A DNA stretch of 64,000 bases from Amphiscolops sp. MND2022 (Eukaryota). Where the stretch lies: the NCBI GenBank assembly GCA_964187785.1, contig OZ076409.1:14634001-14698000 (forward strand), read 5' to 3'. Below the pieces are notes generated by a model that saw only the letters and a program-made list of their open reading frames with translations, had not been told where the DNA came from and made no database searches. Below, piece after piece: positions 23,231 to 48,838 of the stretch; the first letter of the stretch is position 1, and each line of letters opens with the position of its first letter. Position numbers and translations under genes: made by a program.

Positions 23231-23435
23231 TGTTAAGATATATTGATTTACTATAAAACAATGTTGGTGGCAAAGAGTTTTCATTCAACTATTTCGTATC
23301 AAAGTAACAAATGTAGTGAGATCTATGTAATGTAATGCAATAACATAAATAGGACAGTAATTAGAGTTTGTTATCAAATATGTTTAAACAACTCTCTGTC
23401 TAAAGTAGTTCAGTCTATGACCTCTACATTCCACA
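23231..23435 (-). repeat. 3' LTR of Mag-like element
   Basis: Copy of 28957-29161; PPT GGAGGAGGGGGAA (minus strand, 23436-23448) abuts it. Confidence 0.96.
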
Positions 23436-26400
23436 TTCCCCCTCCTCCGGGTGGATTCGGTTTCGGGTGGAGGTAACTGCTGGTGGTTCCGAATTGATCG
23501 GTTGAAGTTTTGGTATTCTGCTATTTTCCGTATTTCACGGTTGCTTCTTTCTTCAGTTTGTTGTTGACTCGGTTGGCTCGCTTGGTTTTCCTGTAACATA
23601 TAATTATTTATTTTTCTTTTATTATTATTTGTAGAATATGGGATACCGCCTAGTTTTTCGGTTTGTCTTGCATTGGGTATTCTTTTCGATTTTCTCACCG
23701 TTAGTTGTGGTTCGCTTATTAGTGGATTCGTTTTTATACCTGTTTCTGGGGTTAGGTTAGTTTCTTTGGGTAGTAGTTGTAGTTCGTCGTCTATGTTGGC
23801 ATGGACAGGCTTTCCTTCGCTAGTATTGTAGCATTGGAATTCGTCGTCGGATACTATGCTCAGGTCTAGATCCATCGGTTTTCCCGCCGACTTGTCTGGG
23901 CTCGTGAACTGGCCTCTTTCGTTGCGCGGTTGTTCTTTCCTTTTCAGCCAATCTGCGCTGTTTTCTGTATTCTCCGGTTTCGGTGCTTCTTTTCTACGGT
24001 ATAGACAAGTATTTTCCATCGTCTTTGAGCATGTTGGTTTTTTAGCCGTTGTTGTCAATCTGGTATTGATCCTTTTTGTCGGAGTTGTTGTAGCCTGAAA
24101 GGGTATCGGGTTAGATATTAGCTTCCTATGAAGGATTTTGTTCTTGTCCGTGGTTACCGTATGTTTGGTCCCCGAGACTGCAGTTAATGGTTTGTTTTTG
24201 AATTTGCTTCCAAGTGAGCATTTTGTATGTGTTTTTTCAAAAAAGGTGAACGGGTAATTCGTATTTTTCTCTCTACTTACCGTATTTGACGGTTTTTGTT
24301 TTTGGGTGAAGGTCATCCCCCTCCGGTATTTCGGGTCATTTGTCTTCTTCTTTGACATCACCAAGTGGTCGGTAATCTCGCCGGCTGAGTTGCGGGTGAT
24401 GTAGACTGATAAGTCCTTGGAATTGACTGAAATAGAATTTTTTAGATTAGATAGTTTTGTTCCAGGTTCTCGCCCGAGGTGTAGTTCGAACGGGGTTTTC
24501 TTTATTTCAGAATGTGTGGTGAAACGGAGGACGTAGAGGGTTTTATTTAGGCTTTCGCGTAAATTTTTTGTTTCTTCTAAATTTGTTTTTGTTAGATTCT
24601 TCAGTGATTGGATAGTTCTTTCCACCAATCCCGTGCCAGTATGTAGGTTTGGTGTTCCGTATTTGCGGATTATATTATATTCTTTGCAAAAGCTTTTGTA
24701 TTCTTTTGAGATAAAAGCGCTGCCGTTGTCCGATTTAGTTGTCTTCGGTACTCCGTATACATTTACATATTCCCGTAGGAATGTTATTACTGTATCGTGG
24801 TTGGTATTTTTGCAAATTTTCGCTACCGGCCAACGGCTATTTTTGTCTACGGCTACTAAGATGAAAGGAGAGGAATCTAAATGTTTGCTATTTAAGTTTC
24901 CCGTAAAATCAATTTGGATTTCTTCTCCTGGGTATTTTCGCGGATCAAGTTTAGATTTTTCGGTACTGGGTAGTTGGGTTTTTAAATTCTTACCGGCATT
25001 CAGGCAAGCGGAGCAGGTTTTGGCCTTCTTCTCGATGTCTGCTCTCATGTTTGGCCACCAAAAGATAACTGCGTCGTTGCACATTTTATTTATTCCTGGG
25101 TGGCCGAAGTGAAGTGCATTGAGTGCGGCGTAGCGTAAGCTTTTGGGGATAATGATACGGTCGTCCACCATTGTTATTCCCCAGCGGTGGGTCAGTTTCT
25201 TTGCTACTTGTTTGTAATCGTCTGGGATGGCTTGTGTGTTGTTGTCTTCGATGCAGCATTGAACTTCGATTAGGTCTGGGTCTGCTGCCGTTTCCTTGAT
25301 TAGTGTTTCCAGGTCAAGCATAAAATCGAGTTCTGCGGCTCTGATGTTATCTTCTTGTTGTCGGTTTCTAGGGGCTTTCGTCGCGATGACCTTGTTGATG
25401 CGTACGTAATGTACGGCTATCTCTTCTATTGGGCCTTCGCGGTATTCTTGAACGGGGATCGCTGGGTAAGACCCTGGTTCTTCCGTTATTACCGGTTCTT
25501 CTGGTGTTGAAGAGACCGTGGATTCGGTGTCCGGTGTGTGCTTCTGTGTTTTTGTAGTTTCCGTGTTGATTTCCGATGATGTGCCGGATGCTTGTGGAAT
25601 TTCATCTCCAAAGTTTTTAAAGTAGCCGCCCCCGATGTGTGTAACTCGGTTTTCTTCTTTCCTTCTCAAACGGATGTCAATGCGTTTGATTTCTTTTCTA
25701 TCTACGTCATCCGGTCTTCTTGGAAGAAGTATTTCTCTCTCGAGTTTCTTGTGCCAGTGGTATCGCATATGGCCCGGTCGTGTTAATTCGATTCTTCTTT
25801 CTACTAGTTCTTGTGTCTCCGGTGAATTGTCTCTTCTGTTAATAATCTTCATGATTTCGTCATCGGCTCCCCAGTGGTATTTAAGTTTATCGTTTAAAGC
25901 AAATCGGTCCGGGATTTGACGGTTATTGTTATTGTTGTCCATTTTTGGTTCGCTGTAGGATTTGCAATTATCGTGAATGGCGTTGTTAATCTGATTAGCG
26001 GTCAAATTGGAATGGTTTGTGTTTGTTTTGCTGTAGCGCGTACCAGTCCAGCTGTAGCGCGTACCATGCATGTTTGCCGTTTCGCTGTTTTCTGATTGGT
26101 CAAAAATCCGTCCAATTCTGCCATTTACCGTGGCTAGTTGCGCGATGGCGTTGATGACGAATTCTTCTTCGTAATTTTCTTCCGGTTCAGCGGTTTCCGT
26201 AGGGTTACGGCTAATGAAATCGGTGAATTTGATTTCTTTTCCGGCAGTGTGTTTTAATGATATGTCAAAATGGTTTAGTCTGTCTAACCACCGTGTTAAT
26301 CGGGCGCTATATTGTTTGTTGGTTTTGTTTCTCTTTAATAGTGGTTCCAAAGCCTGGTGGTCGGAGAATAATTGAACCTGTTTTCCGTATAGGTGAAATC

Positions 26401-28879
26401 TGAACCGTTCAAGGCCCCAGACTACTGCTAGTAGTTCTAGTTCACCGACGGAATATTTCTTCTCTGCATCATTGAGATAGCGACTGGCATATGCAATAGC
26501 TTTCAATTCGCCGTTGTGTTGGCGTTGCCATAGCGCTATGCCTAAACCGGTGTTGCATGCGTCGGTTGTAACAATGCTTTCTTTGTTACCGTTGTAGTGT
26601 GCTAAACACGGTTGTGTTGTCAATTCTTTTTTCAGGTTGTTGAAGTCTGTGTTTCGTTCTTCTGTCCACTCCCATTTTATTCCTTTTTTCAGTAGTTGTC
26701 TCATATTGTCCGTCTTTTCGGATAGATTTGGTATAAATTTTGCAAAATATTGTATTGCTCCCAAAAATGATTTTAGGGTTTTTGTAATTGTCGGTGGGTT
26801 CAATTTGTTGATTGCGTCCGTTTTTTCTTTGTTCGGTCGGATTCCATCTTGTGATATGGTTTGTCCAAGCCATACCGATTCTTTTTGATAAAATTTTGAC
26901 TTCTTTTTGCTGGCCTTATAGCCTTCGTTTTCCAGTTTTGTTAGGACTGATTCTAATTTTTGTGTATGTTGTTCCTTCGTTCCGCGTGTCATGATTATTA
27001 TATCGTCCAGCCATACTGGTATTTGGTGGCCGAGGGTTCGGTCTATTTTCTCCTGGAAGATGGTGGGTATGTCGGCTGGTCCGTAAAAACCCTTTAGGAA
27101 TCGGTAATATCCGTTGATTTTCTCTCCTGTAATGGCAAAGTTACAGTGTTTGCTTGTTTCCGGTGATAGTTTCATTTGTCCGTAAGCATAGTCCAAATCT
27201 ATGATTGATATCCAGATTGGGTCTAATTCGTTTTTTGATAATTCGGAAGAGATTTGGTTTAGTAGTTCATCCATGTTTGGCATGTGTGGTCTTTTCTTTA
27301 TACAGCTGTCGTTTAGTTTCCGCGCGTCAAGTGCAATTTTGACCGTTTTGTCCTTTTTTACCGTAATTACAACGGGGGATACGAAGCAATCTTCTTCGAT
27401 TGTTTCTAGTCTTTGTAAATGTCCGGATTTTATTAATCGGTCTAGTTCGTTTTTGACGTCATCTTGTAGGTGGTACGGTATTGGTCGTGCTTTTTGTTGT
27501 ATTGGGTAACAGCCCGGTTTTATCTGTATTTTCACCTCCGCGTTCTTGATAGTGTGGTTTGTTTCAAATAGTTTCTTGAATTTCGCATGTATCTTTGTTG
27601 TTTCTGATTGGTCGGTGTTGTTGTCCAATGAAATTTTGTTGATGGTAATTGGCAGTTGTTTTAGCCAATTTACTCCCAGTAGGGGTGTGATGTCGGTTCT
27701 CTTTGTGATTAGTGATGGTAATTTAATGTATTTGCCGTTATACTCGGTGTCTACCCATACTTTTCCCAGGAATGTGATTTCGTTTTTGTTTACATCTTGA
27801 TATCTCTCTTTTAACGGTTGGATATTTTCTGGGTTGTATAGTGTGGGGTTGTTCGGCATGATGGTGACCGGAGAGCCGGTATCGATAATAAACTTTTGGT
27901 TTTTTCCGTTTATTTTTATTTGGACACCATAGTGGTCGTTGTTGTCCGGTGTTATTTTGTTGATTCGTGTGATTTGGAGTATTTCCTCGGGTTCACTGTT
28001 TTCGTCTTCTTCTTCGGAGGTCATATCTTCCAAGTATTTGATTCTTTTTGTTTTGTTTGGTTTCGTGCGGCATACCCGGGCGAAGTGTCCCGTTCTCTGG
28101 CAGTTGTTGCATTTTACCGTTTTCGCCGGGCAGTTATGTTGGGGTGTCCAATTTTGTTGTCCGCAGAATCCGCAGTTGTTTTTCTTTTGTTTTGGTTGTT
28201 CTCGATATTGTTTTGTTTGGATTTTTTGGATCGGTTCTTGTTTTATTTCTTTGTCTTTCGCCAATGCGGGTGGTATGGTTGATTGTTTGTGTCGGCGGTC
28301 GTAGCTGTCTTGTGTGATAAGTTCTATGGTGGTTTTCAAGTTGAGAGTTTTTTCACGGATCAGTTTTTCCCGAAGTTTTTTGTCGGTTATGCTTGTGATA
28401 AATTTCGATATGAGTAAGTCTTCTTGTTTGATATCTTTGAAGTCACATGTTTTTTCTAACGTTATCAGCTTTTTCCAATGTTCCTCGGGTGTTTCGTTTT
28501 CCTCTTGCTTGGCCCAGAAGAAATCTCCACGGCTGTGGTATGTATTTCTTTTGGGCATATAGTATTCCCGGAACAGTTGGATTAGCTTGTCGGTTTTTAT
28601 TGTGTCTGGGTCCGTGTTGAATTCTCCTTTCGTGATGATTTCAATTGCCGACGGTCCGGCGCCCCAAATGAAATCTTGTCTGATTTCCGGTTCTTTTGTG
28701 TCCCATGGGTCACCGGTAGGAACCGTATCGTCGGTTAATATCGGTTTGATATCTATGTTGTGGATTCTTTTTATATAATGTCGAAATCTCTCTGTCCATT
28801 CTTTTGGTGTGTATATTTTCTTCCCGTCAAGTCCGGTGTCTTCTAGGTAAGGTAGTTGTATCTTGGTTGCCACGGCCAT
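23384..28879 (-). CDS. gag-pol: Gag-Pol polyprotein in one frame, 1831 aa
   Basis: Knuckles CGFCG...HNC and CNNCQRTGHFARVC; protease IIDTGS; RT IDLDYAYGQ and WLDD; RNase H TDAC, ELELLA, SDH; integrase HFGH...CSAC, IDF, SDNG, VER; stop lies inside the 3' LTR. Confidence 0.96.
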   Translation of the reverse strand: MAVATKIQLPYLEDTGLDGKKIYTPKEWTERFRHYIKRIHNIDIKPILTDDTVPTGDPWDTKEPEIRQDFIWGAGPSAIEIITKGEFNTDPDTIKTDKLIQLFREYYMPKRNTYHSRGDFFWAKQEENETPEEHWKKLITLEKTCDFKDIKQEDLLISKFITSITDKKLREKLIREKTLNLKTTIELITQDSYDRRHKQSTIPPALAKDKEIKQEPIQKIQTKQYREQPKQKKNNCGFCGQQNWTPQHNCPAKTVKCNNCQRTGHFARVCRTKPNKTKRIKYLEDMTSEEEDENSEPEEILQITRINKITPDNNDHYGVQIKINGKNQKFIIDTGSPVTIMPNNPTLYNPENIQPLKERYQDVNKNEITFLGKVWVDTEYNGKYIKLPSLITKRTDITPLLGVNWLKQLPITINKISLDNNTDQSETTKIHAKFKKLFETNHTIKNAEVKIQIKPGCYPIQQKARPIPYHLQDDVKNELDRLIKSGHLQRLETIEEDCFVSPVVITVKKDKTVKIALDARKLNDSCIKKRPHMPNMDELLNQISSELSKNELDPIWISIIDLDYAYGQMKLSPETSKHCNFAITGEKINGYYRFLKGFYGPADIPTIFQEKIDRTLGHQIPVWLDDIIIMTRGTKEQHTQKLESVLTKLENEGYKASKKKSKFYQKESVWLGQTISQDGIRPNKEKTDAINKLNPPTITKTLKSFLGAIQYFAKFIPNLSEKTDNMRQLLKKGIKWEWTEERNTDFNNLKKELTTQPCLAHYNGNKESIVTTDACNTGLGIALWQRQHNGELKAIAYASRYLNDAEKKYSVGELELLAVVWGLERFRFHLYGKQVQLFSDHQALEPLLKRNKTNKQYSARLTRWLDRLNHFDISLKHTAGKEIKFTDFISRNPTETAEPEENYEEEFVINAIAQLATVNGRIGRIFDQSENSETANMHGTRYSWTGTRYSKTNTNHSNLTANQINNAIHDNCKSYSEPKMDNNNNNRQIPDRFALNDKLKYHWGADDEIMKIINRRDNSPETQELVERRIELTRPGHMRYHWHKKLEREILLPRRPDDVDRKEIKRIDIRLRRKEENRVTHIGGGYFKNFGDEIPQASGTSSEINTETTKTQKHTPDTESTVSSTPEEPVITEEPGSYPAIPVQEYREGPIEEIAVHYVRINKVIATKAPRNRQQEDNIRAAELDFMLDLETLIKETAADPDLIEVQCCIEDNNTQAIPDDYKQVAKKLTHRWGITMVDDRIIIPKSLRYAALNALHFGHPGINKMCNDAVIFWWPNMRADIEKKAKTCSACLNAGKNLKTQLPSTEKSKLDPRKYPGEEIQIDFTGNLNSKHLDSSPFILVAVDKNSRWPVAKICKNTNHDTVITFLREYVNVYGVPKTTKSDNGSAFISKEYKSFCKEYNIIRKYGTPNLHTGTGLVERTIQSLKNLTKTNLEETKNLRESLNKTLYVLRFTTHSEIKKTPFELHLGREPGTKLSNLKNSISVNSKDLSVYITRNSAGEITDHLVMSKKKTNDPKYRRGMTFTQKQKPSNTVSREKNTNYPFTFFEKTHTKCSLGSKFKNKPLTAVSGTKHTVTTDKNKILHRKLISNPIPFQATTTPTKRINTRLTTTAKKPTCSKTMENTCLYRRKEAPKPENTENSADWLKRKEQPRNERGQFTSPDKSAGKPMDLDLSIVSDDEFQCYNTSEGKPVHANIDDELQLLPKETNLTPETGIKTNPLISEPQLTVRKSKRIPNARQTEKLGGIPYSTNNNKRKINNYMLQENQASQPSQQQTEERSNREIRKIAEYQNFNRSIRNHQQLPPPETESTRRRGNVECRGHRLNYFRQRVV

Positions 28880-28938
28880 TATTGATATTCGTTGGTTGAT
28901 AAAAATGTTTCGTGTTTTAAGAAGGTTTGGTAGAATAA

Positions 28939-28956
28939 AATCTTGCTACTGCGCCA
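28939..28956 (-). promoter_or_regulatory. Primer binding site, probably tRNA-Ser (imperfect)
   Basis: TGGCGCAGTAGCAAGATT immediately after the LTR; close to the complement of tRNA-Ser 3' ends (...ATCCTGCTGACTGCGCCA). Confidence 0.65.
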
Positions 28957-29161
28957 TGTTAAGATCTATTGATTTACTATAAAACAATGTTGGTGGCAAA
29001 GAGTTTTCATTCAACTATTTCGTGTCAAAGTAACAAATGTAGTGAGATCTATGTAATGCAATGCAATAACATAAATAGGACAGTAATTAGAGTTTGTTAT
29101 CAAATATGTTTAAACAACTCTCTGTCTACAGTAGTTCAGTCTATGACCTCTACATTCCACA
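28957..29161 (-). repeat. 5' LTR of Mag-like element
   Basis: TGTTAAG...TTCCACA; 4 substitutions versus 23231-23435. Confidence 0.96.
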
Positions 29162-34920: not shown

Positions 34921-35047
34921 AGATTCTTTTCGGTCAGAATCACACAGTATATAACGAACTTGTTATAACTAATCTTTGTTTCTCATGCCCTTTTTCATTT
35001 TGAAATGATTCTATATTGATCCGTACTCCGCTAAATTATATAGACCC

Positions 35048-37002
35048 TGTAGAAATTTTTGCTAGAGGGTTGGAGAGAGATCCCAATGGCTCGATTCTAA
35101 CAGAAAGGTTTAGTTTTTAGTGAGTAAGTTTCGTCCACGTATCGCGTATTCTTTTCACAAGGTCTCTCCAGTGCTCAAGTTTCGACTCCAAAAAAACACT
35201 ATGGAAAAGTTGCTTGCAATTAATACTCTAATTCAGGAATTACCTGGATAATACAAGTCGAAGATTTCCACAGTACGTAACTACTCAATCAAGCAATAAC
35301 AATAGCACAGTAGGTGAATGAATTATATACAATAACTCAACAGAACTGTGCCCAAAATCACGATTCACTCAAAGATTTCCAAGTCCCGGACTTGTAACTT
35401 ATTCGCTGCTCTCACAAAGCAGTAAGTCAAAATCGATCTCGAGTAGGTTTCTTGCCCGCACGGCTCAACTTACTCTTAACTTCGTAATCGTTCTTCTTTC
35501 TCAATTCGGTTCTCCTTTTTCCTCCCTAAGATGTTTATTCGTCAGCCGCATTTTTGTTGTACCGATGTCGCTCTTTTATTTGCATGCTTTTTACTTCATG
35601 TAGTTCCATTCCTTTTATGGCATGGCAGCTCTCTAGTTATGTTTCGGCCAGACATTCTTCGCCGCCAACGACAAATACTTCAACAAAGATTGTACAAAGT
35701 TCACATTTCGATAATAATTCAAGTCCACCAAGATATTTCCAATATCGAGACAATCGTTCAATGACCTTCAATTACATGGTTTACATGCTCTATATGCGTA
35801 AGGGGTACTTTTCTGTCATTCTGAGTGCAATACATCGCGAATCGTTCCGCCTGACTGAAATGCATAAATTATCGCTTAAAGACACTGATTTACATGTTTT
35901 ATTGTATGTTTTCCTATATGTTCCGGGGTTGCATCTAAGATGACCTTGAGGTCCATCTGTGACCTTGAAGTTATTTGTCATCATCTAATGTCACTACATG
36001 CCAAGTTATATCGTCCTAGGGTCAATGGTCTTCGAGTTACATGATATGCGTATCTTTTGTTTACTTAAGGCGGCTACCCCCGCATGGGTTACAAATACGG
36101 TTTCGTTCACGTTGGTAATCAACTACATTCATCGTTCCGGTTCGTTTGATATATTACAAGCCAAGGTCAATTGTCATTTATCGGTCCGGCCCGTGCGTCC
36201 GGTCCCGCGTGCCTTAAACAAACATTACTCCGCGCGTGGTGAACTGATTAATGTATCTTTCATGTATATTACTTAGGGTTACTAGGCGAACATATTGGGT
36301 AAGTTTCATGATCGTCGGGTCATCCGGTGGCTATTTACATAACATTCGGGGTTTATTTACTTAGGGTCCGTGCTCCTCCTACGCGCGTCATAGGGTTCCG
36401 AAAACATGCGCAAAGGGCTTAGTATCGGGTGGGCTATCAATTCTATATATAATACGACTTATTCCGTGCTTGGCCGATGAGTTCATAGGGGGGTCGACCT
36501 AGGTCACTTCCGGTGCTAATAGCCCGGGACTGGGGGGTCTCGGCTCGGTTCCGTTTTTATGGGCGTGTGGCATAACAGCTCAATTATCCGTGTGCCAAAT
36601 TTCAAGTCTCTACGATAAGTAGTCTTTGAGAAAAACCTGACTGGGGGGGTTTTTCGATTTTGTGACGATTGATTTTTTCATGGTGTATCTTAGAATATTT
36701 TCCCTCGAAAGTGGGACTTAGTAAAATTCGCTCTAAGTGATCAATTTTGACTCAGCCGATTCAAAATCTTCCATCGTTGACGTCACTTGCTAACTTATTA
36801 ATTTTTGCCTAAGAAGTTTCGTTTACAAAGTAAATACCTAGTTTGCCAAATAAGCTATATCGAAGCATGCTATTGTCAGCCTCTTCAGGTGTTTTCACTA
36901 TTCTGGCGGTCTAAAAACATGATTAACATAGTTCCGTCTATCATATGTACTTCGCGCAAAAGCAATGGGTTTTCGTGGACGCCAAAAACTAAAAATTCCA
37001 CA
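35048..37002 (-). repeat. 3' LTR of env-bearing element
   Basis: Copy of 45756-47710; by eye one substitution (36261 C vs 46969 A) and two homopolymer length differences; PPT adjacent. Confidence 0.97.
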
Positions 37003-37014
37003 CTCTTCCCTTCT
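37003..37014 (-). promoter_or_regulatory. Polypurine tract
   Basis: Minus strand AGAAGGGAAGAG directly abutting the 3' LTR. Confidence 0.9.
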
Positions 37015-37759
37015 GGACTTTTATTCTCCTGAATAAACTTAGCGGTATTGTCGTTGGCTCTGGTTTTCGAAAGTTAGGTTATGAATAAGTTTAAGACGAT
37101 TCTGAACGCGTTCTAATTATTGCTTCTTTTGTTATTTCGAGAGTGAAGTTAACAAATCCGTGTCTATTTGTACTATTCGACCTTGACGCCCAAGGAATTT
37201 ATTTACCGACGAAGACCTACTCTCCTAATAAGGCACAGCTTTATCGAGTTACCGAGTTCTTAGACTAATATTAGCACATAAATTAGTGGAGGCATCTCGG
37301 TAAATCAATCATCCATAATCGTAACGAGATTCTCGGGTACATCAAAGAGCATCAACAAATGAACAATTGGGATAATAAATACGTCAGGTTAATACAACAT
37401 GATAATGACCTTTCGTTTAGGGCCAAAATGGCTGAATGCCTCCTTAAAATAAATTGAAAGCATAAGAATCACAATCTTCCGCTAAAAGATCCAGAGATTT
37501 TCCTATTCAGAAAAATTGACGACCTTCATGAAGGCAGGATAACTTGACACTTACCACATATATTTGAAACCTGTTTATAGTCGTCAAATTTTCTTCGTAG
37601 GTACTCAGAATTGGGTATAACTAAAGGTTAGTGTAGCAAATTGGGGGGGGGTAATTAAGGAGTTAGGAGGGGGGTCGTTCTAGGTTAATAAATTGGCATC
37701 TACCCAGTTATCGTTATAATTAGAGGTTAATACTTTTTCTTTATATAATTACTCCTTTC

Positions 37760-39997
37760 TCAGTTTACTCCGGAAGTCTTCACGATACTGTCTGCTTTCT
37801 GGGAATTGGTTGGTGCACCGATGTTCCCACTGGAAGTATCCTCTTTCCTTTCCGGTCGACTGCCGTCCGACCCTGTACCGGTCATCTCTTTCATCTCGGT
37901 ATTGTTGGTTTCCTCCACAGTGCTATCGCCTGTCCGGCCTACAATCACCTTCCCTTTTTCCTGGGCACGCTTGCATGGGCAAAGGGTAAGCATCATCTCG
38001 AAAAACTGTCGGGGCCCCAGGTAGATCATCACTCCGACAACCGCTAAGAGGAAAAGTGCCAACAGCGTCAACAGGACAGTGCCGACCACCGGGTGTGCCA
38101 CTTCTTTCCAATGGAACGGTGCATGTCTTTTCAGGATGGCTTCCGCAAAGGGACGGGAAATCTTCTTTATTTCCTCATCGTCAATTTCGTCTTCCGGTAG
38201 CTCGATTAAGTTCATTTTCAGGCCTTTTAACAGGTCTTCATGAGCCACCGCTCTATATTCCTTTTTAAACTTCCAATCCGGATTCTGCTCTTGAATTTCC
38301 TCGAAGAGTGTAAACATTGAGGCCAACACGGTATTCTGTTTAATCGTTATATGCAGGCCTGCTTCATGATGACACTTCCTGGGGTCTGGGTTGAGCACTA
38401 GGCTTCCATCCGGGGTCTCAATGCGCCCATTGCAGGCTGGCCGAAGGAGGCAACTCTTACATCCGCGGATCCTTTCCCCTTCAACGGCTCGTCCTCCCGT
38501 GTAGTTATATAGTTGGTAGGCAGTACTTCGAGATGTCAACAAATAGGTGGAATCACCCAGGTATTCAGCTACTGGCTCTTCCGGTAGCGCCACCACTTCT
38601 TGAGGGCATAACTTCAGTGCAGTATTCTGGAGGTTAAAAAACAGGCTCGCCAGGCAGGAGGACTTACTGCTCCGTGACATTGCTACTGGTCTTAAGCATA
38701 ATCTGAGTCTCGATGTTCCCTGGCAGTGGGTGGTCAGTTGTTGTTCCGTAGCCTCCGCGAAACTATCTCTCCTATTCGATTGCAGGAACTGGTTTTGTTT
38801 GAAAATGTATCTAGTGGCTGTGTTACCATCATCGATCGGCTGGGGGATCGCCACAGCTTTGTACACTCGATATGCGCCGCTCGCAAAATGCATCGGAATA
38901 TTTAATAGTACGTTTATAGACTCGTCTGTCAGGACCACGTTTTCCACCAGTTCGAATCCGTAATACGCCGATAATTCAGTTCGGGGAATCGCCTCTTGCA
39001 TTCCGTCTACTTGAATGTTGTTCAGTACCTTCAGGAGTGCCTTGGGAGGAATAAGGGCTGCTGGGATGAATCCCTTCGCTAGCGCAGCCAAAGCATCGTC
39101 CAGAACATATCCGAAGTTGTGAAGACCCACTTGATAATCCAAAATTTCTGCCAATAGCGTATCAAAGTATTGCGTGTGATTCATCATGGAAAGCGTCCAC
39201 TGTGCAGCCTCGACAAATTCCCTCTCGCGCTTCCCGCAGATGTCGGCGATCTTGTCCCAGGAGGTTCCGTCTGACAGTCGATTAAATACTGCCCTCAAGT
39301 TTCGAAAGTTTTCGTTAGCGTCTTTTGCCAACACTCGGACTCTTCCTTGAGTTCGGTTCAAAGAGTGACCCAACAGGTGTATTCTCTCTCCAGTTTCCAA
39401 AGTGACCGTTCGGGCGAGATCATCCACTTCTGATAGTCGTTTGGCCAATTCGTCATATTTACCCGAGTCCCCACACATGAAGGTGAAAGGACAAAAATCG
39501 TCCAAAAAGCGAGGTAGTAGAGTGATTGCGGCTGCCGTGGCAGCCACTCCGGCCAACAGTACCGTCAAAGCTCCTCGTCTGTCCCTGTCCGGATGAATGT
39601 CCCTATGCCTTATGAAGGTCTGTGCCCGCTCGCGCATCTCTGCCAAATCGTCCATTACCTCCAGGTATGCCTTCTCGACGTTTTTCAGGCCCAGAAAAGT
39701 CACATTAAATGTGGCATCCGTGATCTCTTCATTTGCGCAAATATTCCCTCCCCAGGGCTTCCACGATTTACGGGATTTATACTGGAACTCTTGGAAAACT
39801 ATATCCAGGTGGGTGACATTGAGGGCTGCCGGCGAAGGGAAAGGTATAGTTATCCACGCTGCCTCCAGTGAACTGGCTATGATCACAGGCGGTTCTGGGG
39901 TGAATACTACTCCAGCAGTATTGTTATATGTTAAAGTGTTTGCCGTTGGGAAGCCCCAACAAACGAGCAAAAGAAGCGAAAGAAGTTTTAGTATCAT
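37760..39997 (-). CDS. env: Envelope glycoprotein, class I F-type fusion protein, 745 aa
   Basis: Signal peptide, RDRR furin-type site (aa 138-141), hydrophobic fusion peptide, heptad-like helix, Cys-rich ectodomain, N-glycosylation sequons, TM near aa 637-661, cytoplasmic tail; third ORF before the 3' LTR. Confidence 0.92.
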   Translation of the reverse strand: MILKLLSLLLLVCWGFPTANTLTYNNTAGVVFTPEPPVIIASSLEAAWITIPFPSPAALNVTHLDIVFQEFQYKSRKSWKPWGGNICANEEITDATFNVTFLGLKNVEKAYLEVMDDLAEMRERAQTFIRHRDIHPDRDRRGALTVLLAGVAATAAAITLLPRFLDDFCPFTFMCGDSGKYDELAKRLSEVDDLARTVTLETGERIHLLGHSLNRTQGRVRVLAKDANENFRNLRAVFNRLSDGTSWDKIADICGKREREFVEAAQWTLSMMNHTQYFDTLLAEILDYQVGLHNFGYVLDDALAALAKGFIPAALIPPKALLKVLNNIQVDGMQEAIPRTELSAYYGFELVENVVLTDESINVLLNIPMHFASGAYRVYKAVAIPQPIDDGNTATRYIFKQNQFLQSNRRDSFAEATEQQLTTHCQGTSRLRLCLRPVAMSRSSKSSCLASLFFNLQNTALKLCPQEVVALPEEPVAEYLGDSTYLLTSRSTAYQLYNYTGGRAVEGERIRGCKSCLLRPACNGRIETPDGSLVLNPDPRKCHHEAGLHITIKQNTVLASMFTLFEEIQEQNPDWKFKKEYRAVAHEDLLKGLKMNLIELPEDEIDDEEIKKISRPFAEAILKRHAPFHWKEVAHPVVGTVLLTLLALFLLAVVGVMIYLGPRQFFEMMLTLCPCKRAQEKGKVIVGRTGDSTVEETNNTEMKEMTGTGSDGSRPERKEDTSSGNIGAPTNSQKADSIVKTSGVN

Positions 39998-40458
39998 ACC
40001 GTTTTCGAATTAAATAATTTAATAAGTGATGCCAACTTAGGAACCTTAAGAACGGCACTGTTTATTCCTGAGGTCCCGCCCAAACAAGACGGTCATCATT
40101 CCTTCATTCAAAGGTGAGACGGCTTTTAAGTCTAGACGACTAAGGTACGTTTACTTTCAATGTTGACCATTGCATCATTCAGTGTATCCTGCGTATTTAC
40201 CGGACGTGCTCACCTTTGAAGTCAGTAAATAGGTTATTTATCCTGTGGTATTAGTAAAGCAAACACCCAGGATACGTGGGTAATCAAGATCATGGGGTGG
40301 AATAAAAAAAACAATTTGCTGGGGTTTTAAGAACGCAAAAAAAAAATAATAATAAAAAAAATTAATAGCGCACCTCAATCGTTCAACGGGGGGGGTCTTC
40401 CTTTTTAACATGGGGTTGTTTGAGGAGTTAGTTTTTAGTTTGTGAATATCTTACTGGT

Positions 40459-43400
40459 TCATTCATCTATTCCGAACCTTTGCGTGGGTTTTCGACTGCG
40501 CTGCGGGTAACGCTGCTGGTCTCCGGGTTGCTCCACTTGGGTGTCATCTAAGGGTTCGGGGTTTGTAACATCAGCAACAGCATCGTCCACAGGGTTGCCG
40601 GGGGTATGGGTCGCTTCATCGACTTGCTGGGTTGATTTGTCTGCTCGCGTGGGGGTCGGGTAGCTGCACCCCGTAACTCTGGTTGATTCATCTAATGTTT
40701 CCTTTCGCCCAGTTTCGCTCTCTTCTTCGAACATCGGCCCCAAATGGAAGTCCTGGTCGAGCCAGAGGTCACGTTTCAACCTATCGTACTTCCGGACCGT
40801 CTGCCCAGCTATACGGCGGGTCTCAGCCTCTGTCTTTGCGGCAATGCCTGCCGACTTCGAAGGATCTTCGTGGTCTGGTTCGTCCAATAAATCTTCCTCA
40901 TCCACATCGTCGAAGAAATTCTTAGATCGATACGGGTTCGGTCTGCTGGGTCGCTCGTCAACTGGTTCGCTCACAAAGGCTTTCAGCATGTTGAAATGGA
41001 CAATCTTCCATTTGTCCTCTTTTCCTTTCTTCGCGATCTTGTAGTTAACTTCTGACGTTTGTTCCAAGATCTCCCAAGGTCCGTCCCACGGTAGGTAGAA
41101 TTTTCTCGATTTGGCCTTGTGGGGGGACATCAGCCAGACTTTCTCCCCTTCTGCATAATTCCGGCCATAAACCTTCTTATGGTACCGGTCTTTCTGACGT
41201 TCTTGATTAACTCCCAGGTGACTTCTGGCGGCGCTATGGGCCTCGTGGAACTTACGGTCGAGGTCGTCCACGAAGTCGGTGCGGTCCATCAGTTCGTCAT
41301 GAGGGCGGGGGTAAAACAGGTCGATCGGGTACTGACACTCTTGTCCATAGACCAGCGCGAAGGGGGTAGCCCTTGTCGTCCTGTGCACAGTTGTGTTGTA
41401 AACGAAGTTCAAGTAGGGGAGAACCTCATCCCACACTTGCGGGTTATCGCTGCAGTACTTCGACACCATGTCCGCAATTACCCGATTGTGACGCTCCACT
41501 TGACCGTTCCCCTGTGGATGGTAGGGAGAAGTCCTCGTTTTGTCTATCTTCAGTAGCTGGCACATTTCTTGTATGACTCGACTCCCGAAGTTCGTTCCCT
41601 GGTCTGTGTGAAGACAGTCGGGCACTCCAAAGCGCAGTATCCAGCCCGTAACTATTGCCTCCGCGACGTCTTGTGCTTCAGTCTTTACCAAGGGTACCGT
41701 AACTACGAACTTCGTGAAACAATCTGTCATTGCCAGGATGTATTTGGCTCCAGTTTTCGTTGCTTTGGTCACCGGACCCAAGATGTCCGCGGCAACCGTG
41801 TGGAAGCGAATTCCCACCTTTCGGGGTTGTAACTCGGCGATATTTTTCTTCCCGGCCACTGAACGCGCAGCACAAGGTACACACCATGAGATTCGTTTTT
41901 CAACATCTCGTCTCATGGATGGCCACCAAAATCTCTGACGGATTCGCAGGAGAGTCTTTTCCAGCGCGAAGTGCCCTCCGCTCATCTGCGAAGAGTGCAA
42001 CTGCTCCAGTATCTCTTTACGAGCTTCGAATGGGACTATTAATTGGACTTGATCCTGTCCACTCTCTGCACTGGCCCAATGACGATACAACAGCCCGTTC
42101 TTTACAAAAAGCTGACGCCAGAGATTCCAGTACGCCAAGGCTTCCTCTCCCAAGGACACTACTTCTTTCTGTGTTGCCACTCTAGTGCCCAGTTCTGTTT
42201 GGTGTGGTTTATTCTTCACGTCCGCCCATTCCAGGACTGCTCTGATGGCGGGGTCTGCCCATTGAGCCTTCGATATGTCGTCGGGCGAGGATTTCCACGT
42301 GATCTGGGCTTCTTCCGGACTGGTGACTTCCGTCACGGTCGCAACTCGGTCGGATGCACCCAGTTCTTTCAGTGCCTGCTCCATCGTCAGGGGCTCGGGG
42401 CAAGAGCCCATCAGCTCTTCCTTTTCTCCGGGGAGCCATTCTGGTTCATCAGAGCTCATGCGGGACAGTCCGTCCGCGTTGCCATGTTTGTCTCCGCTCC
42501 GATGGACTACTTTAAAATTATACTCCTGCAGTGTTTGTAGCATCCGAAATGTCTGGCCGTCTGCGTTCTGCCGAAACAGCCATCGTAAACTGGCGTGATC
42601 CGTGCGAACAACGAATTCGGTGCCCCATATGTATGGTCGAAACCACTTCAGGGCCTGCACTACCGCTAGGGCTTCTCGCTTTGTTGTCGAATACATGCTT
42701 TCGGTCTTCGACAGCACTCTGCTCGCGAACACAAGTGGCCTTTCATCTCCATCTATTACATTGGATAACACCGCACCCAAACTCACATTACTCGCGTCCG
42801 TATCGACCACAAACGGGCTTTTATAATCTGGATACTGCAGCATTGGTGCGGTCGTGAGTTCTAGTTTCAGTCTTTCAAATGCCACTTGGCAATCTTCGTT
42901 CCACTCGAAGCGGGCATTCTTCTTCGTGACTGCGTGTAAGGGTCGGGCTATTTCCGCAAAATTCCGAATAAATCTGCGATAGTAGCTGCAGAACCCCACA
43001 AACGACCTCACGTCTGTCACATTCTTCGGCACTGGCCACTCCTTTACTGCTTTTACCTTGCCCGGGTCAGGGGATGTGCCATCAGCTTGGATAGTGTGTC
43101 CCAAGTAGTCGACCTGCTTTTGGAAAAACTTGCACTTCTTGGGTTTCAGCCGAAGGTTCGCTTCCCTCAGGGTCTCGAAGGTAATTCTCAAGTTCTGCAT
43201 GTGCTGCTCCACGTCTCCACTGTACAAGAGGACGTCATCTAGGAAGATCAGGACTCCTTTGTAGATGTACTGGGCGAACAAGTTATTCATTAATCGTTGG
43301 AATGTGCCAGGAGCGTTGGTCAACCCGAAAGGCATCCGTACATACTCGTAGAGTCCACCATCTGGAGTAACAAAAGCCGTTTTGTGTCTATCTTCGGGCG

Positions 43401-44670
43401 CAACTGGAACTTGCCAGTATCCACTTGCCAAATCCAGGGTGGAGAAAAGCTTTGCGCCGTTCAACGCGTCAAAGGTCTGCTCAATCTTTGGGATAGGGAA
43501 CGCGTCTTTGACGGTGACTTCATTAAGCCTTCGGTAATCTACACAGAATCTCCAACTGCCGTCCTTCTTTCTGGCTAATACAATCGGGGCACTGTACGGG
43601 CTGTTGGAATGTTGTATGACACCTCGTTTTAGCATGTCTTCCACCTCCTGTTGCACAATCGGGAGTTTTGCCGGGGCTATTCGGTGTGGGGGTATTTTGA
43701 TGGGGTCGCTGTCCCCTGTCTCGATGTGGTGTTCCGCCACGTCCGTACAACCCAACTCGTCATCATTGAGCGCAAAAACGTCTCTGTATTCAGTCACTAA
43801 GGCTGCTAAGACCTCCCGTTCCCGACCTGTGACGTTTTCGGCGGAGAGTGCTAAGATTTTCTCCACGTCTTGCTCCAGTGTGGGGAAGCACGTCGTGGGA
43901 GTCGTCTCAACGCGGGGTTCTTGAACTACCCTAACACGATCGGCTTCCTGGTTTTCAGTGTCATCTGACTGCTGGTGCGGGATCTCCTCGTGTCCAATTG
44001 AAACTTCAGGTTTCTGCTCCTCCACACCGTCTCCACTGATTTGGTCTGCGTTCGAGTTTTTTGATGGCTCCTCTGGTTCCGTTTCTCTGAGTCCTCGGAT
44101 GCGTCGAATCTGCTCGACTCGGAAACCCACGATAGAGCCTTCTCCTGGTCCGGTCCAGAACTGTTTGGTATTGAAATCCAAGTTTGATTTGTGATTGTTC
44201 ATAAATGCGAGCCCAAGGATAATGGTCGGGTTAACGTCGTGCATTACTAAAAAGTTTACTTCTTCGTCGATTGCCCCCACAACTATTCTAACTCGGGCAC
44301 GTCCGACGACGGCCATTTGTCTCCCGTCTGCTGTCTCCAGGCGTCCGTCATACCTCTCTAATTCCGGGAAACGATCCAGTTCGTAGAGTGCATTTAAGTT
44401 TATTAGGTTTACTGAAGCTCCCGTGTCCAGCAGGGCGTCTACTTCTTTCCCAGCCACCTTGACTCTGGTGATGGCGCTGAGTGTCCCACCCTCTGGTGTC
44501 AAACTTGGGTCTTCCGGGTCTGGATCGTTTGAGTTTAAGGGACGTGCTTTGTCTGCCATCGCTTCAGCCTTCGCCTTCACGAGGGATGGGATGATTTTGA
44601 AATTTGCAGTTTTAAATTCGGCCGGGACAAAACCTTCTTTCACTGGCTTCCCGGCCCTTCGGAGTTTAAA
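40459..44670 (-). CDS. pol: Pol polyprotein PR-RT-RNaseH-IN, probably made as Gag-Pol by -1 frameshift
   Basis: Protease LLDTGA; RT LDLASGYWQ, MPFGL, FLDD; RNase H TDAS, REALA, TDH; integrase H-x6-H...CVPC, TDQG, VER; GPY/F-like WDGPW; no internal stops. The ORF-track start at 44721 lies upstream of the slippery site. Confidence 0.96.
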   Translation of the reverse strand, partial: FKLRRAGKPVKEGFVPAEFKTANFKIIPSLVKAKAEAMADKARPLNSNDPDPEDPSLTPEGGTLSAITRVKVAGKEVDALLDTGASVNLINLNALYELDRFPELERYDGRLETADGRQMAVVGRARVRIVVGAIDEEVNFLVMHDVNPTIILGLAFMNNHKSNLDFNTKQFWTGPGEGSIVGFRVEQIRRIRGLRETEPEEPSKNSNADQISGDGVEEQKPEVSIGHEEIPHQQSDDTENQEADRVRVVQEPRVETTPTTCFPTLEQDVEKILALSAENVTGREREVLAALVTEYRDVFALNDDELGCTDVAEHHIETGDSDPIKIPPHRIAPAKLPIVQQEVEDMLKRGVIQHSNSPYSAPIVLARKKDGSWRFCVDYRRLNEVTVKDAFPIPKIEQTFDALNGAKLFSTLDLASGYWQVPVAPEDRHKTAFVTPDGGLYEYVRMPFGLTNAPGTFQRLMNNLFAQYIYKGVLIFLDDVLLYSGDVEQHMQNLRITFETLREANLRLKPKKCKFFQKQVDYLGHTIQADGTSPDPGKVKAVKEWPVPKNVTDVRSFVGFCSYYRRFIRNFAEIARPLHAVTKKNARFEWNEDCQVAFERLKLELTTAPMLQYPDYKSPFVVDTDASNVSLGAVLSNVIDGDERPLVFASRVLSKTESMYSTTKREALAVVQALKWFRPYIWGTEFVVRTDHASLRWLFRQNADGQTFRMLQTLQEYNFKVVHRSGDKHGNADGLSRMSSDEPEWLPGEKEELMGSCPEPLTMEQALKELGASDRVATVTEVTSPEEAQITWKSSPDDISKAQWADPAIRAVLEWADVKNKPHQTELGTRVATQKEVVSLGEEALAYWNLWRQLFVKNGLLYRHWASAESGQDQVQLIVPFEARKEILEQLHSSQMSGGHFALEKTLLRIRQRFWWPSMRRDVEKRISWCVPCAARSVAGKKNIAELQPRKVGIRFHTVAADILGPVTKATKTGAKYILAMTDCFTKFVVTVPLVKTEAQDVAEAIVTGWILRFGVPDCLHTDQGTNFGSRVIQEMCQLLKIDKTRTSPYHPQGNGQVERHNRVIADMVSKYCSDNPQVWDEVLPYLNFVYNTTVHRTTRATPFALVYGQECQYPIDLFYPRPHDELMDRTDFVDDLDRKFHEAHSAARSHLGVNQERQKDRYHKKVYGRNYAEGEKVWLMSPHKAKSRKFYLPWDGPWEILEQTSEVNYKIAKKGKEDKWKIVHFNMLKAFVSEPVDERPSRPNPYRSKNFFDDVDEEDLLDEPDHEDPSKSAGIAAKTEAETRRIAGQTVRKYDRLKRDLWLDQDFHLGPMFEEESETGRKETLDESTRVTGCSYPTPTRADKSTQQVDEATHTPGNPVDDAVADVTNPEPLDDTQVEQPGDQQRYPQRSRKPTQRFGIDE
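44620..44670 (-). promoter_or_regulatory. -1 programmed ribosomal frameshift signal
   Basis: T_TTA_AAC in the gag frame (44664-44670), 7-nt spacer, 8-bp stem GGCCGGGA/TCCCGGCC; pol is in the -1 frame. Confidence 0.88.
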
Positions 44671-45662
44671 GCCTCCGACTTCTTTGGGCATGCTCGTGCA
44701 AAGTGGCCCTCTTCGCCACATTCATAACAAGCAAGTGTCTGGCGCGATGAGTGGGGCTTGTTACCACTTCCACCCTGGTTGTTGAAATTGTTCCCGTAGC
44801 GATTGGTGCCTTCATTCGGGTTGAAGAGCTTCTTTTCCTGAGCGGGGGTTGTTGCAGCTTGTGGGTACGGCATCGGAAGTACGGACGACATGAATCTCGA
44901 CATCATGTTGGTCAGGTTATTCATGGCTTGACTGACTTCGTTCATCTGTTGCCTCATCTCGGTCATCTCGGGGTTGCTGCTACCTGTCGTCGCCTCCTGA
45001 GTCACCCTGAGCGCTGCCACTCGTTTCGTGGACCTGTTTCGTATGGACCTGGTGATTGTCTCCAGATCGACAGCTCTGTTTATAGTGTCCGTGAATGACC
45101 TGGAGTCCTCCCTCAGCAAGACCTCAAGCAGCTCTGGGTCGAACAGCCCCTCTATGAACCTTTCGCGGAAGTGCTCATCCCGCTGCTCTGCGTTCAAATT
45201 GGCAAACACTTGCGTCCCCACACTCCGAACTCTGCGCGCAAAGTCCCTCAGGCTTTCGCCTTCTTTTTGCACCAAAGCTTTGAATTCACTTCTTCCCATT
45301 CTGTCGTTCCTCAGTACCCCTAAGGCCCGGTCCAAGTGCTCGAACAAATTTTGGAGAGTCGGGGCCGGCTCACCTTCTGCGGGTTCTTTCAACGCCGCTG
45401 GTGCTGCATGGAACTCATCCAATGCGTGGCCGTTTAGACAAACTGGCAAAGCGTTGATGGCTTGAATCTGGGTCCATCTGTTCGCCGCTGCCACCGCTGT
45501 AAAGTGTGACTTCCACTGAACCCAATTTGGATACGCGTTCGAGGGGAATCTGTCGGGTCTGAGGGCACCATTATGGAAGATACGGTTCTGCTGATCGTTC
45601 AACACTTGCCCGACCGCCTGCATGGCCACCTCCAACAAATCTCGTTTCTCTTCTTGATTCAT
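44640..45662 (-). CDS. gag: Gag (capsid-like region plus one CCHC zinc knuckle), 340 aa
   Basis: First ORF after the PBS; Q-x-x-G-E-S-L major-homology-like segment (QKEGESLRDF); knuckle CYECGEEGHFARAC. Confidence 0.93.
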   Translation of the reverse strand: MNQEEKRDLLEVAMQAVGQVLNDQQNRIFHNGALRPDRFPSNAYPNWVQWKSHFTAVAAANRWTQIQAINALPVCLNGHALDEFHAAPAALKEPAEGEPAPTLQNLFEHLDRALGVLRNDRMGRSEFKALVQKEGESLRDFARRVRSVGTQVFANLNAEQRDEHFRERFIEGLFDPELLEVLLREDSRSFTDTINRAVDLETITRSIRNRSTKRVAALRVTQEATTGSSNPEMTEMRQQMNEVSQAMNNLTNMMSRFMSSVLPMPYPQAATTPAQEKKLFNPNEGTNRYGNNFNNQGGSGNKPHSSRQTLACYECGEEGHFARACPKKSEALNSEGPGSQ

Positions 45663-45736
45663 CGTGTTGTCGGGGGATAACAGCTAATCCCAGTAAAACA
45701 ATTCCAAAATAACAGCGATACAGAACTACGAAAATT

Positions 45737-45754
45737 GCCCACCCAGGAGCGCCA
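45737..45754 (-). promoter_or_regulatory. Primer binding site, tRNA-Asn type
   Basis: Minus strand TGGCGCTCCTGGGTGGGC, 1 nt from the LTR; complement GCCCACCCAGGAGCGCCA resembles the 3' end of animal tRNA-Asn(GTT). Confidence 0.85.
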
Positions 45755-45755
45755 C

Positions 45756-47710
45756 TGTAGAAATTTTTGCTAGAGGGTTGGAGAGAGATCCCAATGGCTC
45801 GATTCTAACAGAAAGGTTTAGTTTTTAGTGAGTAAGTTTCGTCCACGTATCGCGTATTCTTTTCACAAGGTCTCTCCAGTGCTCAAGTTTCGACTCCAAA
45901 AAAACACTATGGAAAAGTTGCTTGCAATTAATACTCTAATTCAGGAATTACCTGGATAATACAAGTCGAAGATTTCCACAGTACGTAACTACTCAATCAA
46001 GCAATAACAATAGCACAGTAGGTGAATGAATTATATACAATAACTCAACAGAACTGTGCCCAAAATCACGATTCACTCAAAGATTTCCAAGTCCCGGACT
46101 TGTAACTTATTCGCTGCTCTCACAAAGCAGTAAGTCAAAATCGATCTCGAGTAGGTTTCTTGCCCGCACGGCTCAACTTACTCTTAACTTCGTAATCGTT
46201 CTTCTTTCTCAATTCGGTTCTCCTTTTTCCTCCCTAAGATGTTTATTCGTCAGCCGCATTTTTGTTGTACCGATGTCGCTCTTTTATTTGCATGCTTTTT
46301 ACTTCATGTAGTTCCATTCCTTTTATGGCATGGCAGCTCTCTAGTTATGTTTCGGCCAGACATTCTTCGCCGCCAACGACAAATACTTCAACAAAGATTG
46401 TACAAAGTTCACATTTCGATAATAATTCAAGTCCACCAAGATATTTCCAATATCGAGACAATCGTTCAATGACCTTCAATTACATGGTTTACATGCTCTA
46501 TATGCGTAAGGGGTACTTTTCTGTCATTCTGAGTGCAATACATCGCGAATCGTTCCGCCTGACTGAAATGCATAAATTATCGCTTAAAGACACTGATTTA
46601 CATGTTTTATTGTATGTTTTCCTATATGTTCCGGGGTTGCATCTAAGATGACCTTGAGGTCCATCTGTGACCTTGAAGTTATTTGTCATCATCTAATGTC
46701 ACTACATGCCAAGTTATATCGTCCTAGGGTCAATGGTCTTCGAGTTACATGATATGCGTATCTTTTGTTTACTTAAGGCGGCTACCCCCGCATGGGTTAC
46801 AAATACGGTTTCGTTCACGTTGGTAATCAACTACATTCATCGTTCCGGTTCGTTTGATATATTACAAGCCAAGGTCAATTGTCATTTATCGGTCCGGCCC
46901 GTGCGTCCGGTCCCGCGTGCCTTAAACAAACATTACTCCGCGCGTGGTGAACTGATTAATGTATCTTTAATGTATATTACTTAGGGTTACTAGGCGAACA
47001 TATTGGGTAAGTTTCATGATCGTCGGGTCATCCGGTGGCTATTTACATAACATTCGGGGTTTATTTACTTAGGGTCCGTGCTCCTCCTACGCGCGTCATA
47101 GGGTTCCGAAAACATGCGCAAAGGGCTTAGTATCGGGTGGGCTATCAATTCTATATATAATACGACTTATTCCGTGCTTGGCCGATGAGTTCATAGGGGG
47201 GTCGACCTAGGTCACTTCCGGTGCTAATAGCCCGGGACTGGGGGGTCTCGGCTCGGTTCCGTTTTTATGGGCGTGTGGCATAACAGCTCAATTATCCGTG
47301 TGCCAAATTTCAAGTCTCTACGATAAGTAGTCTTTGAGAAAAACCTGACTGGGGGGGGTTTTTCGATTTTGTGACGATTGATTTTTCATGGTGTATCTTA
47401 GAATATTTTCCCTCGAAAGTGGGACTTAGTAAAATTCGCTCTAAGTGATCAATTTTGACTCAGCCGATTCAAAATCTTCCATCGTTGACGTCACTTGCTA
47501 ACTTATTAATTTTTGCCTAAGAAGTTTCGTTTACAAAGTAAATACCTAGTTTGCCAAATAAGCTATATCGAAGCATGCTATTGTCAGCCTCTTCAGGTGT
47601 TTTCACTATTCTGGCGGTCTAAAAACATGATTAACATAGTTCCGTCTATCATATGTACTTCGCGCAAAAGCAATGGGTTTTCGTGGACGCCAAAAACTAA
47701 AAATTCCACA
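45756..47710 (-). repeat. 5' LTR of env-bearing element
   Basis: Plus strand TGTAGAAAT...ATTCCACA; copy of 35048-37002 at offset 10708; PBS adjacent. Confidence 0.97.
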
Positions 47711-48838
47711 GACCCTAGGTTACAAGAATCACAAATCTTGCAAAATTCTTCCGAGCATCTTGCCAACTTTGCATTTTTTACAAAAATCTTACAAGTTTGT
47801 ACAAGAATCGCAAATTTTGCAAATTTGTTACAATGTCGAACATTTCTTACAAGATTCTGATAACATTTCTGCAAAAATTGCATTTTTCCGTAAAAAATTC
47901 TTACAAAAAATGCGATGTGTAATTTCGACTAAAAATTCGTTCAAGACGGTAACATTCGTTCAATTTTCTGTCTTTTCTTATTAACATCTGCCCATTATTA
48001 TGGCCCGGGTAGCATTAAGGACGCTTTTCGGCACCGCATTTCCAGAAGTTCAGTTCTATCAACTAGTTCTTTTAATTGGCACTGCGAGTCATGTGGTCTT
48101 CAATTGGAATTATAAAATTTAAAATTAACCCATATATGGTCTTATCCCATAATTGATGTACCCCTGGTTGAAAATAAGTACAATTCTTGCCTCAAAGATT
48201 TTCGCCTCCCCTTTGACCAATTTTTTGCTCTGGGTAAATTATCATCTTTTCAAACGCAATTGTGTGGGGTTTGATTAACTCCGTGTGAATACACAGAATG
48301 CATAATTAGAGCCTTTTTTGATTATAGTTTATCTAGGCATTCGCAATTTATACGAAATATGCGAATTGCCATAATTTTGTGTAAATATCCGTTCTTAATT
48401 GCTTCGCTCAAAAGTTTGGAGCGATTGTGACGTAGTGAAATTTTGGATTCCATAGAAGTTATTGTCGACAAATTACAGAGAAGCATAATGCTAGTAATTT
48501 TGTTCAATTACGAATAATTTGAGAGTCAGCTATTTAGATAAACTCGTTCTTGGTCAAAGTCATTCAGGTCAAAGTTATTCATGTCTCAATGAATCAGGAA
48601 AATGAATGAGGGCCTTCCGATTCCCAAAAACGAAGGATCCCATAAAGTTTGAAATTATCCATTCTCTGACCCGGAAAGCTCTCGAGAAGTTGAAAATCTC
48701 CCAAAAATTCAGTCTCTGATATTTAAATTACGGATCAAGTTTATAACCCCAGTTTCTAACATCTGAAATTTTCTGCTTTGTTGTGTACTAGATAATAATT
48801 CATCATATCATAAACCATTGTGCATTGAAGTGTTCCAA

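Follow-up and report, generated by a model that had tools for sequence, protein, structure and literature searches.

The open reading frame at positions 37760..39997 on the minus strand of the window (the whole 64,000-bp stretch of DNA analysed here) is very probably the env gene of a Ty3/gypsy element that is intact and was inserted recently, and it encodes a predicted F-type class I fusogen of 745 aa that likely lets particles enter neighbouring cells. The element spans 12,663 bp (35048..47710) in the order LTR-gag-pol-env-LTR; all of its features given below lie on the minus strand, apart from the target-site duplication, which has no strand. The element has a 5' LTR of 1955 bp with TG...CA ends (45756..47710) and a 3' LTR of the same length (35048..37002), and is flanked by the 5-bp target-site duplication GACCC (35043..35047 and 47711-47715). 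It is young: the LTR pair is 99.85% identical, with one mismatch and two single-base gaps. The primer-binding site (45737..45754) complements the 3' end of the host tRNA-Asn(GTT) plus CCA, and a polypurine tract (37003..37016) adjoins the 3' LTR. The tRNA-Asn pattern had 380 matches in the genome, and two of the three loci examined were called as tRNA-Asn. Most of the tRNA-pattern matches listed reside in a dense tandem tRNA-Asn-like array on G000:C7, starting at ~47.64 Mb. The gag gene (44640..45662) encodes 340 aa with a CCHC zinc knuckle, and the heptamer TTTAAAC (44664..44670), where gag and pol overlap, is a candidate -1 frameshift site. The pol gene (40459..44721; 1420 aa from the first ATG) encodes protease, RT, RNase H, and integrase in the order PR-RT-RH-IN, all with gypsy-type domains according to Pfam, and is separated from env by a 461 bp spacer (39998..40458) that can be aligned with that of a sister subfamily. 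By the features tested, namely gene order, open frames, target-site duplication, primer-binding site, polypurine tract, gypsy-type Pol, and F-type Env, the element is an env-bearing Ty3/gypsy errantivirus.

Related elements were seen both in the window and elsewhere in the genome. A second Ty3/gypsy element (23231-29161, minus strand) has 205-bp LTRs that are 98% identical and a single 1831-aa gag-pol frame without env, and a third gypsy-like gag-pol, which is frameshifted, occupies positions 59680-64000 on the plus strand and continues beyond the window edge. At two other loci (L046, G000:C13:38206600-38215300, and L047, G000:C7:2946300-2955000), LTRs lie ~6 kb apart and enclose gag and a downstream frame of 426-466 aa, with no match to pol or env; they match the window element at ~89% identity along 1.44 kb of LTR and at 70% identity in gag. 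Judging from these sequence comparisons, the two loci are likely non-autonomous partners of the window element.

Searching the genome with env gave 114 scored matches, including 12 full-length matches at 99-100% identity, the window copy among them and one carrying a stop, while a second env query returned at least 120 matches to more distant families. In nine of nine other close copies examined, the env frame was open and both the cleavage site and the peptide behind it were unchanged; these copies differed from the window copy at 2-79 nt. The dN/dS of env against the most diverged close copy was 0.12-0.18 by three methods, and dS was saturated in the comparison with the sister subfamily. Purifying selection therefore acts on env. 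The near-identical copies, the open frames, the low dN/dS, and the conserved cleavage arginines and cysteines described below together indicate that the env frame is not a chance product. Selection on env is silent on what is being selected, and the F fold could have been kept for a main role other than particle entry, such as host cell-cell fusion or receptor interference. We consider this improbable: env is found in many families and in numerous young copies that are dispersed and have intact gag-pol, and dispersed copies fit a gene that serves the element rather than a single domesticated locus.

Protein database searches returned 10, 13, or 298 relatives, depending on the query, all of them unnamed. 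The 66-sequence alignment used below is a chosen subset consisting of 51 database proteins, 14 in-genome ORFs, and the window Env. No related locus was confirmed among 40 candidates in metagenome contigs, 97 candidates in viral contigs, or in phages. A search of sequencing runs listed no RNA run that contains the sequence, a result that speaks neither for nor against its expression. In one related env-bearing family (L029:2326-7263, plus strand), Pol has a weak Macro domain match (E 0.0044, under the cut-off) that sits between RNase H and integrase. A full-length, highly divergent 18S rRNA gene, putatively acoel-like, was also recorded in the genome (L021, G000:C12:8707397-8709220; 1387.5 bits), and the host is presumably an animal.

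The first-pass annotation had described a signal peptide, an RDRR site, a hydrophobic peptide, GFIPAAL, a transmembrane segment, and an 84-aa tail with CPC, and this layout proved accurate, each part being located in the 745-aa frame. Hydrophobic stretches occur at ~aa 1-20, 142-165, and 632-666. Hydropathy by itself predicts a signal peptide at ~aa 1-21 (39935..39997), and the transmembrane segment lies at ~aa 637-660 (38018..38089). RDRR (aa 138-141; 39575..39586) is the sole R-x-K/R-R site in the protein and is a predicted furin-type cleavage site; in the 66-sequence alignment its arginines are kept in 59/61 rows at P4 and 60/61 at P1. The segment that begins directly after it at aa 142, GALTVLLAGVAATAAAITLL, opens the predicted fusion peptide (aa 142-161; 39515..39574), whose Ala/Gly/aliphatic character, not its exact sequence, is common to the relatives. 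A conserved cysteine pair, C169/C175 (39473..39493; 59/62 and 63/63 rows), directly follows the fusion peptide. Across the family, this pair lies ~28-34 aa past the cleavage site and is, as we presume, reminiscent of the disulfide loop behind the coronavirus S2' peptide. The ectodomain model places a heptad-rich, putatively HRA-like region behind the peptide at ~aa 176-240 (39278..39472), and a long helix and a beta-rich head form the core at aa 255-560 (38318..39235), where GFIPAAL is found at aa 309. The signal peptide, basic cleavage site, hydrophobic peptide, heptad helix, and transmembrane segment together make up the layout of a class I F-type protein.

The description of the long subunit as Cys-rich has to be qualified, as it has 11 cysteines in ~495 aa; C87 is the single cysteine of the short subunit. 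Each of the 12 ectodomain cysteines is conserved in at least 95% of the rows of the 66-sequence alignment that have a residue at the position. There are six ectodomain sequons, with N498 retained in 56/65 rows. The cytoplasmic tail (84 aa after aa 661; 37763..38014) is poorly conserved, and its CPC motif at aa 673 is present in the window Env and not family-wide. By analogy with known fusogens, Env would enter the secretory path as a glycosylated precursor and form a trimer, and a furin-type protease would cut after RDRR to yield two subunits, one short and one long, probably linked through a disulfide in which C87 would be the partner from the short subunit. Cleavage would release the hydrophobic peptide at aa 142-161, the heptad helix would then refold to a hairpin and bring the membranes to merge, and fusion would carry particles into other cells, probably of the germline.

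The ectodomain and the core were modeled with AlphaFold. The ectodomain model had a pLDDT of 76.1, which dropped below 50 at aa 134-182, covering the cleavage site and peptide. Against PDB folds it gave 221 matches at E<=0.001 (best 4.4e-9, TMq 0.2-0.35), and those listed were all pneumo-/paramyxovirus F. This ranking reflects the content of the library, since Jingchuvirales and baculovirus F are absent from the PDB fold lists. In a viral library, the best match was the abalone herpesvirus protein A0A145VUZ2 (E 1.6e-16), followed by Hubei myriapoda virus 8, other chu-related viruses, and baculovirus F (4.3e-15), and paramyxovirus F came at rank 28 (E 1.6e-8); across the PDB and viral searches, TM-scores over the whole ectodomain were low (0.2-0.47). 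The core model (aa 255-560) had a pLDDT of 90.2, and its first four matches, Culverton virus, Hubei myriapoda virus 8, megalopteran chu-related virus 119, and Shayang fly virus 1, were all Jingchuvirales (E 5e-13 to 3e-10, TMq 0.56-0.60). The abalone herpesvirus stood at rank 6, granulovirus F at rank 10 (E 7e-9, TMq 0.57), and a fragment of paramyxovirus F at rank 27 (E 1.3e-3, TMq 0.32). In the VIA comparison of the core model, postfusion hMPV F gave Z 8.4 (263 aligned, rmsd 6.4), a modest value that barely exceeds the level the tool calls common, and foamy virus Env gave Z 7.1. Both AlphaFold models find their matches among class I F-type fusogens, and the fold predictions thus support the assignment of the window Env to this type, in agreement with the first-pass annotation.

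The fold rankings raise the possibility that the env family is akin to the class I glycoproteins found in aquatic herpesviruses and non-chuvirid Jingchuvirales (Viro3D clade IV), as a compact form without long N-terminal extensions, and not to the branch of baculoviruses and insect errantiviruses. The Jingchuvirales at the head of the core search, the abalone herpesvirus at rank 1 for the whole ectodomain and 6 for the core, and weak matches of relatives to Spike_torovirin (best E 2.9e-4) are in its favor. Baculovirus F is nevertheless near in both searches (4.3e-15 vs 1.6e-16; TMq 0.57 vs 0.60), the Spike_torovirin matches are under the cut-off and fall in the coiled-coil region, and Baculo_F is the sole family matched over its curated cut-off. 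No invertebrate retrotransposon Env is among the matches listed, so the nearest kin may be missing from the library; moreover, conformational state depresses TM-scores, library models vary, and a rank by E-value is not a phylogeny. The alliance with clade IV is accordingly regarded as tentative, with the odds against it. Within the F superfamily, we lean toward clade IV or baculovirus F for the branch to which this Env belongs.

The window Env alone had no relevant sequence match in Pfam or the PDB, and the family signal came from its relatives. Fusion_gly (PF00523) had no matches in the window Env or in any set of relatives scanned (20/20, 10/10, and 20/20 without), which places the window Env outside the paramyxovirus F family as far as sequence profiles can tell. 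Weak Baculo_F matches were found in 6/20 relatives and in one of ten env proteins of another set. Two relatives, P0121 and P0132, whose matches to the window Env have E 5e-44 and 3e-31, exceeded the Baculo_F (PF12259) cut-off of 24.1 with 29 and 33 bits, respectively; these are two of the 20 scanned and were chosen because they had been flagged beforehand (two among the 120 relatives listed). Comparison with Pfam thus speaks against Fusion_gly and directs the family signal to Baculo_F, with no match in the window Env itself. When the 66-sequence profile was compared with the PDB, the best match, at E 2.8e-4, was 9w4d, a 'fusion protein', while the leading paramyxovirus F0 reached E 0.35. We take 9w4d to be a baculovirus fusion protein; one segment of L030 matches both Baculo_F and 9w4d, which is consistent with this identity, and a literature search on 9W4D found nothing relevant. 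ESM features pointed to clusters bearing Baculo_F (0.95, with the family on 12-23% of members) and to a Fusion_gly cluster (0.94), at a recognition value for Env of 1497, below the 2300 mark of the tool. Coiled-coil matches to noelin, keratin, HA2, and spike HR1 were treated as compositional.

A VATAAQIT-type peptide is a marker of the paramyxovirus F family. The first-pass annotation had judged the window peptide closer to this pattern than to insect Env and had seen in it a hint of independent capture or of a deep branch of the fusogen family. The best match to VATAAQIT in the window reaches 6/8, with the Q missing, and shuffles of equal composition reach 6/8 in 0.33% of 200,000, a figure that covers one motif chosen post hoc. 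The 6/8 motif was found in 3/24 rows of a smaller alignment and in 3/56 full-N-terminus rows of the 66-sequence alignment, with none higher, and in a quick tree of 32 of the 66 rows the three bearers form a tip clade among relatives without the motif. The region spanning the peptide and heptad repeat (Env aa 130-200) had no match to PDB sequences at E<=10. Since the motif is limited to one nested tip clade and the Ala/Gly/aliphatic character is kept family-wide, the resemblance appears to be derived and compositional, and the paramyxovirus-like peptide is likely an Ala-rich coincidence. The scarcity of the motif, the lack of Fusion_gly matches, and the position of paramyxovirus F at ranks 27-28 all run counter to the closeness first perceived.

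Were env independently captured from a paramyxovirus-like virus, the peptide would be its relic. The motif match and its rarity under shuffling (~0.3%) would fit such an origin, as would the pneumo-/paramyxovirus F proteins that make up all PDB fold matches listed for the ectodomain and the ESM cluster of Fusion_gly (0.94), and the lokiretroviruses described in PMC7947760 would offer a precedent. Apart from the distribution of the motif and the missing Fusion_gly matches, the profile prefers 9w4d to any paramyxovirus F0, paramyxovirus F matches the core poorly, and Env tracks Pol across RTs that are only 27-45% identical. The Env tree of 15 elements of this genome contained three starred groups, and integrase and RT trees built by a quick method, each from 14 env-bearing elements and one env-less element, recovered the same three groups; the Env and Pol trees carry long-branch warnings. 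RT identity between the three groups is 27-45%, and L025, within the group of the window, is placed differently in the Env and IN trees. This agreement between the Env groups and the RT and integrase groups indicates that env has long been associated with pol and is old cargo rather than a recent capture. Capture from a paramyxovirus-like virus is therefore largely refuted and hardly credible, and the sequences give no sign that the window element captured its env. The proposal of a deep branch fared better, as the Env, which has no Pfam match of its own, appears to be unlike insect Env in sequence. In L031-L037 and L042, which form the most distant env group, RT identity of Pol is just 27-31%, the fusion peptides are rich in Gly, and integrase and env stand farther apart.

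Gypsy elements that carry an F-type env have already been published from a wide range of animals: PMC13524379 (Chary & Hayashi, eLife 2026) counts 1512 intact Ty3/gypsy elements with env across animals, its errantiviruses including a non-insect 'ancient' group, and describes an F-type Env that resembles paramyxovirus F, is congruent with pol, and conserves both the furin site and the fusion peptide. Like these, the window element has gag-pol-env, LTRs, a tRNA primer-binding site, and multiple copies, and its Env shares the signal peptide, furin site, fusion peptide, F fold, and congruence with pol. It differs in that its family has no link to any element named in the available part of that paper and has its own LTRs of 1955 bp, and it adds a new family to those described there. 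The 11-nt tRNA-Asn/PBS word of the window is in no row of Supplementary file 1 of PMC13524379, and acoel terms are absent from its text and seven supplements, although the sequence files of its authors may hold relatives. Neither an env-bearing gypsy element in acoels nor a link between a gypsy Env and class I glycoproteins of the Aliusviridae type was found in print, in a search that left most subscription papers outside. The available text of PMC10084718 reports no clear gypsy capture.

Among viral fusogens, PMC12583693 distinguishes class I proteins of baculoviruses, Metaviridae, Mononegavirales, and clade IV, the last comprising Aliusviridae, aquatic herpesviruses, and coronaviruses in Viro3D. 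The window Env resembles baculovirus F in fold (E 4e-15, TMq 0.57) and through the two relatives over the Baculo_F cut-off, whereas it lacks a family match of its own, has 11-14% structural identity, and carries the conserved cysteine pair after an Ala/Gly-rich peptide. The best fold matches of both models are glycoproteins of Jingchuvirales (Aliusviridae, Myriaviridae, and Crepuscuviridae) and of abalone herpesvirus; most of these exceed 1000 aa, in contrast to the 745 aa of the window Env, which is moreover located on a retrotransposon, and at 13-17% identity the likeness is one of predicted fold only. With paramyxovirus and pneumovirus F and with lokiretrovirus Env, which PMC7947760 describes as paramyxovirus-like, it shares the overall layout and the class I F fold. 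It departs from paramyxovirus and pneumovirus F in having no Fusion_gly match, an unconserved motif, and a cysteine loop between peptide and heptad helix; its Pol is Ty3/gypsy-like by domain matches, a probable difference from lokiretroviruses.

To the gypsy elements already known to carry F-type env, these results add a sequence-orphan family that is both large and young (298 database proteins in one profile search, and three deep groups in one genome); they also provide a clean case of env remaining with pol, and they show that Ala-rich look-alikes of fusion peptides are poor guides to ancestry. On a more speculative reading, which we hold to be unlikely, the element would belong to a large and still-active gypsy radiation in an unsurveyed animal group, possibly acoels, and the compact F-type Env of this radiation would have its closest viral relatives in the glycoproteins of Jingchuvirales and aquatic herpesviruses. 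If this is true, the retrotransposon Env would be neither a baculovirus-type nor a paramyxovirus-type gene, and would instead be a relative, so far unsampled and free of extensions, of the clade of fusogens to which the coronavirus S2 core belongs. Should a proper tree uphold the fold affinity, these Envs would close a gap in the history of class I fusogens that PMC12583693 ascribes to unsampled taxa.
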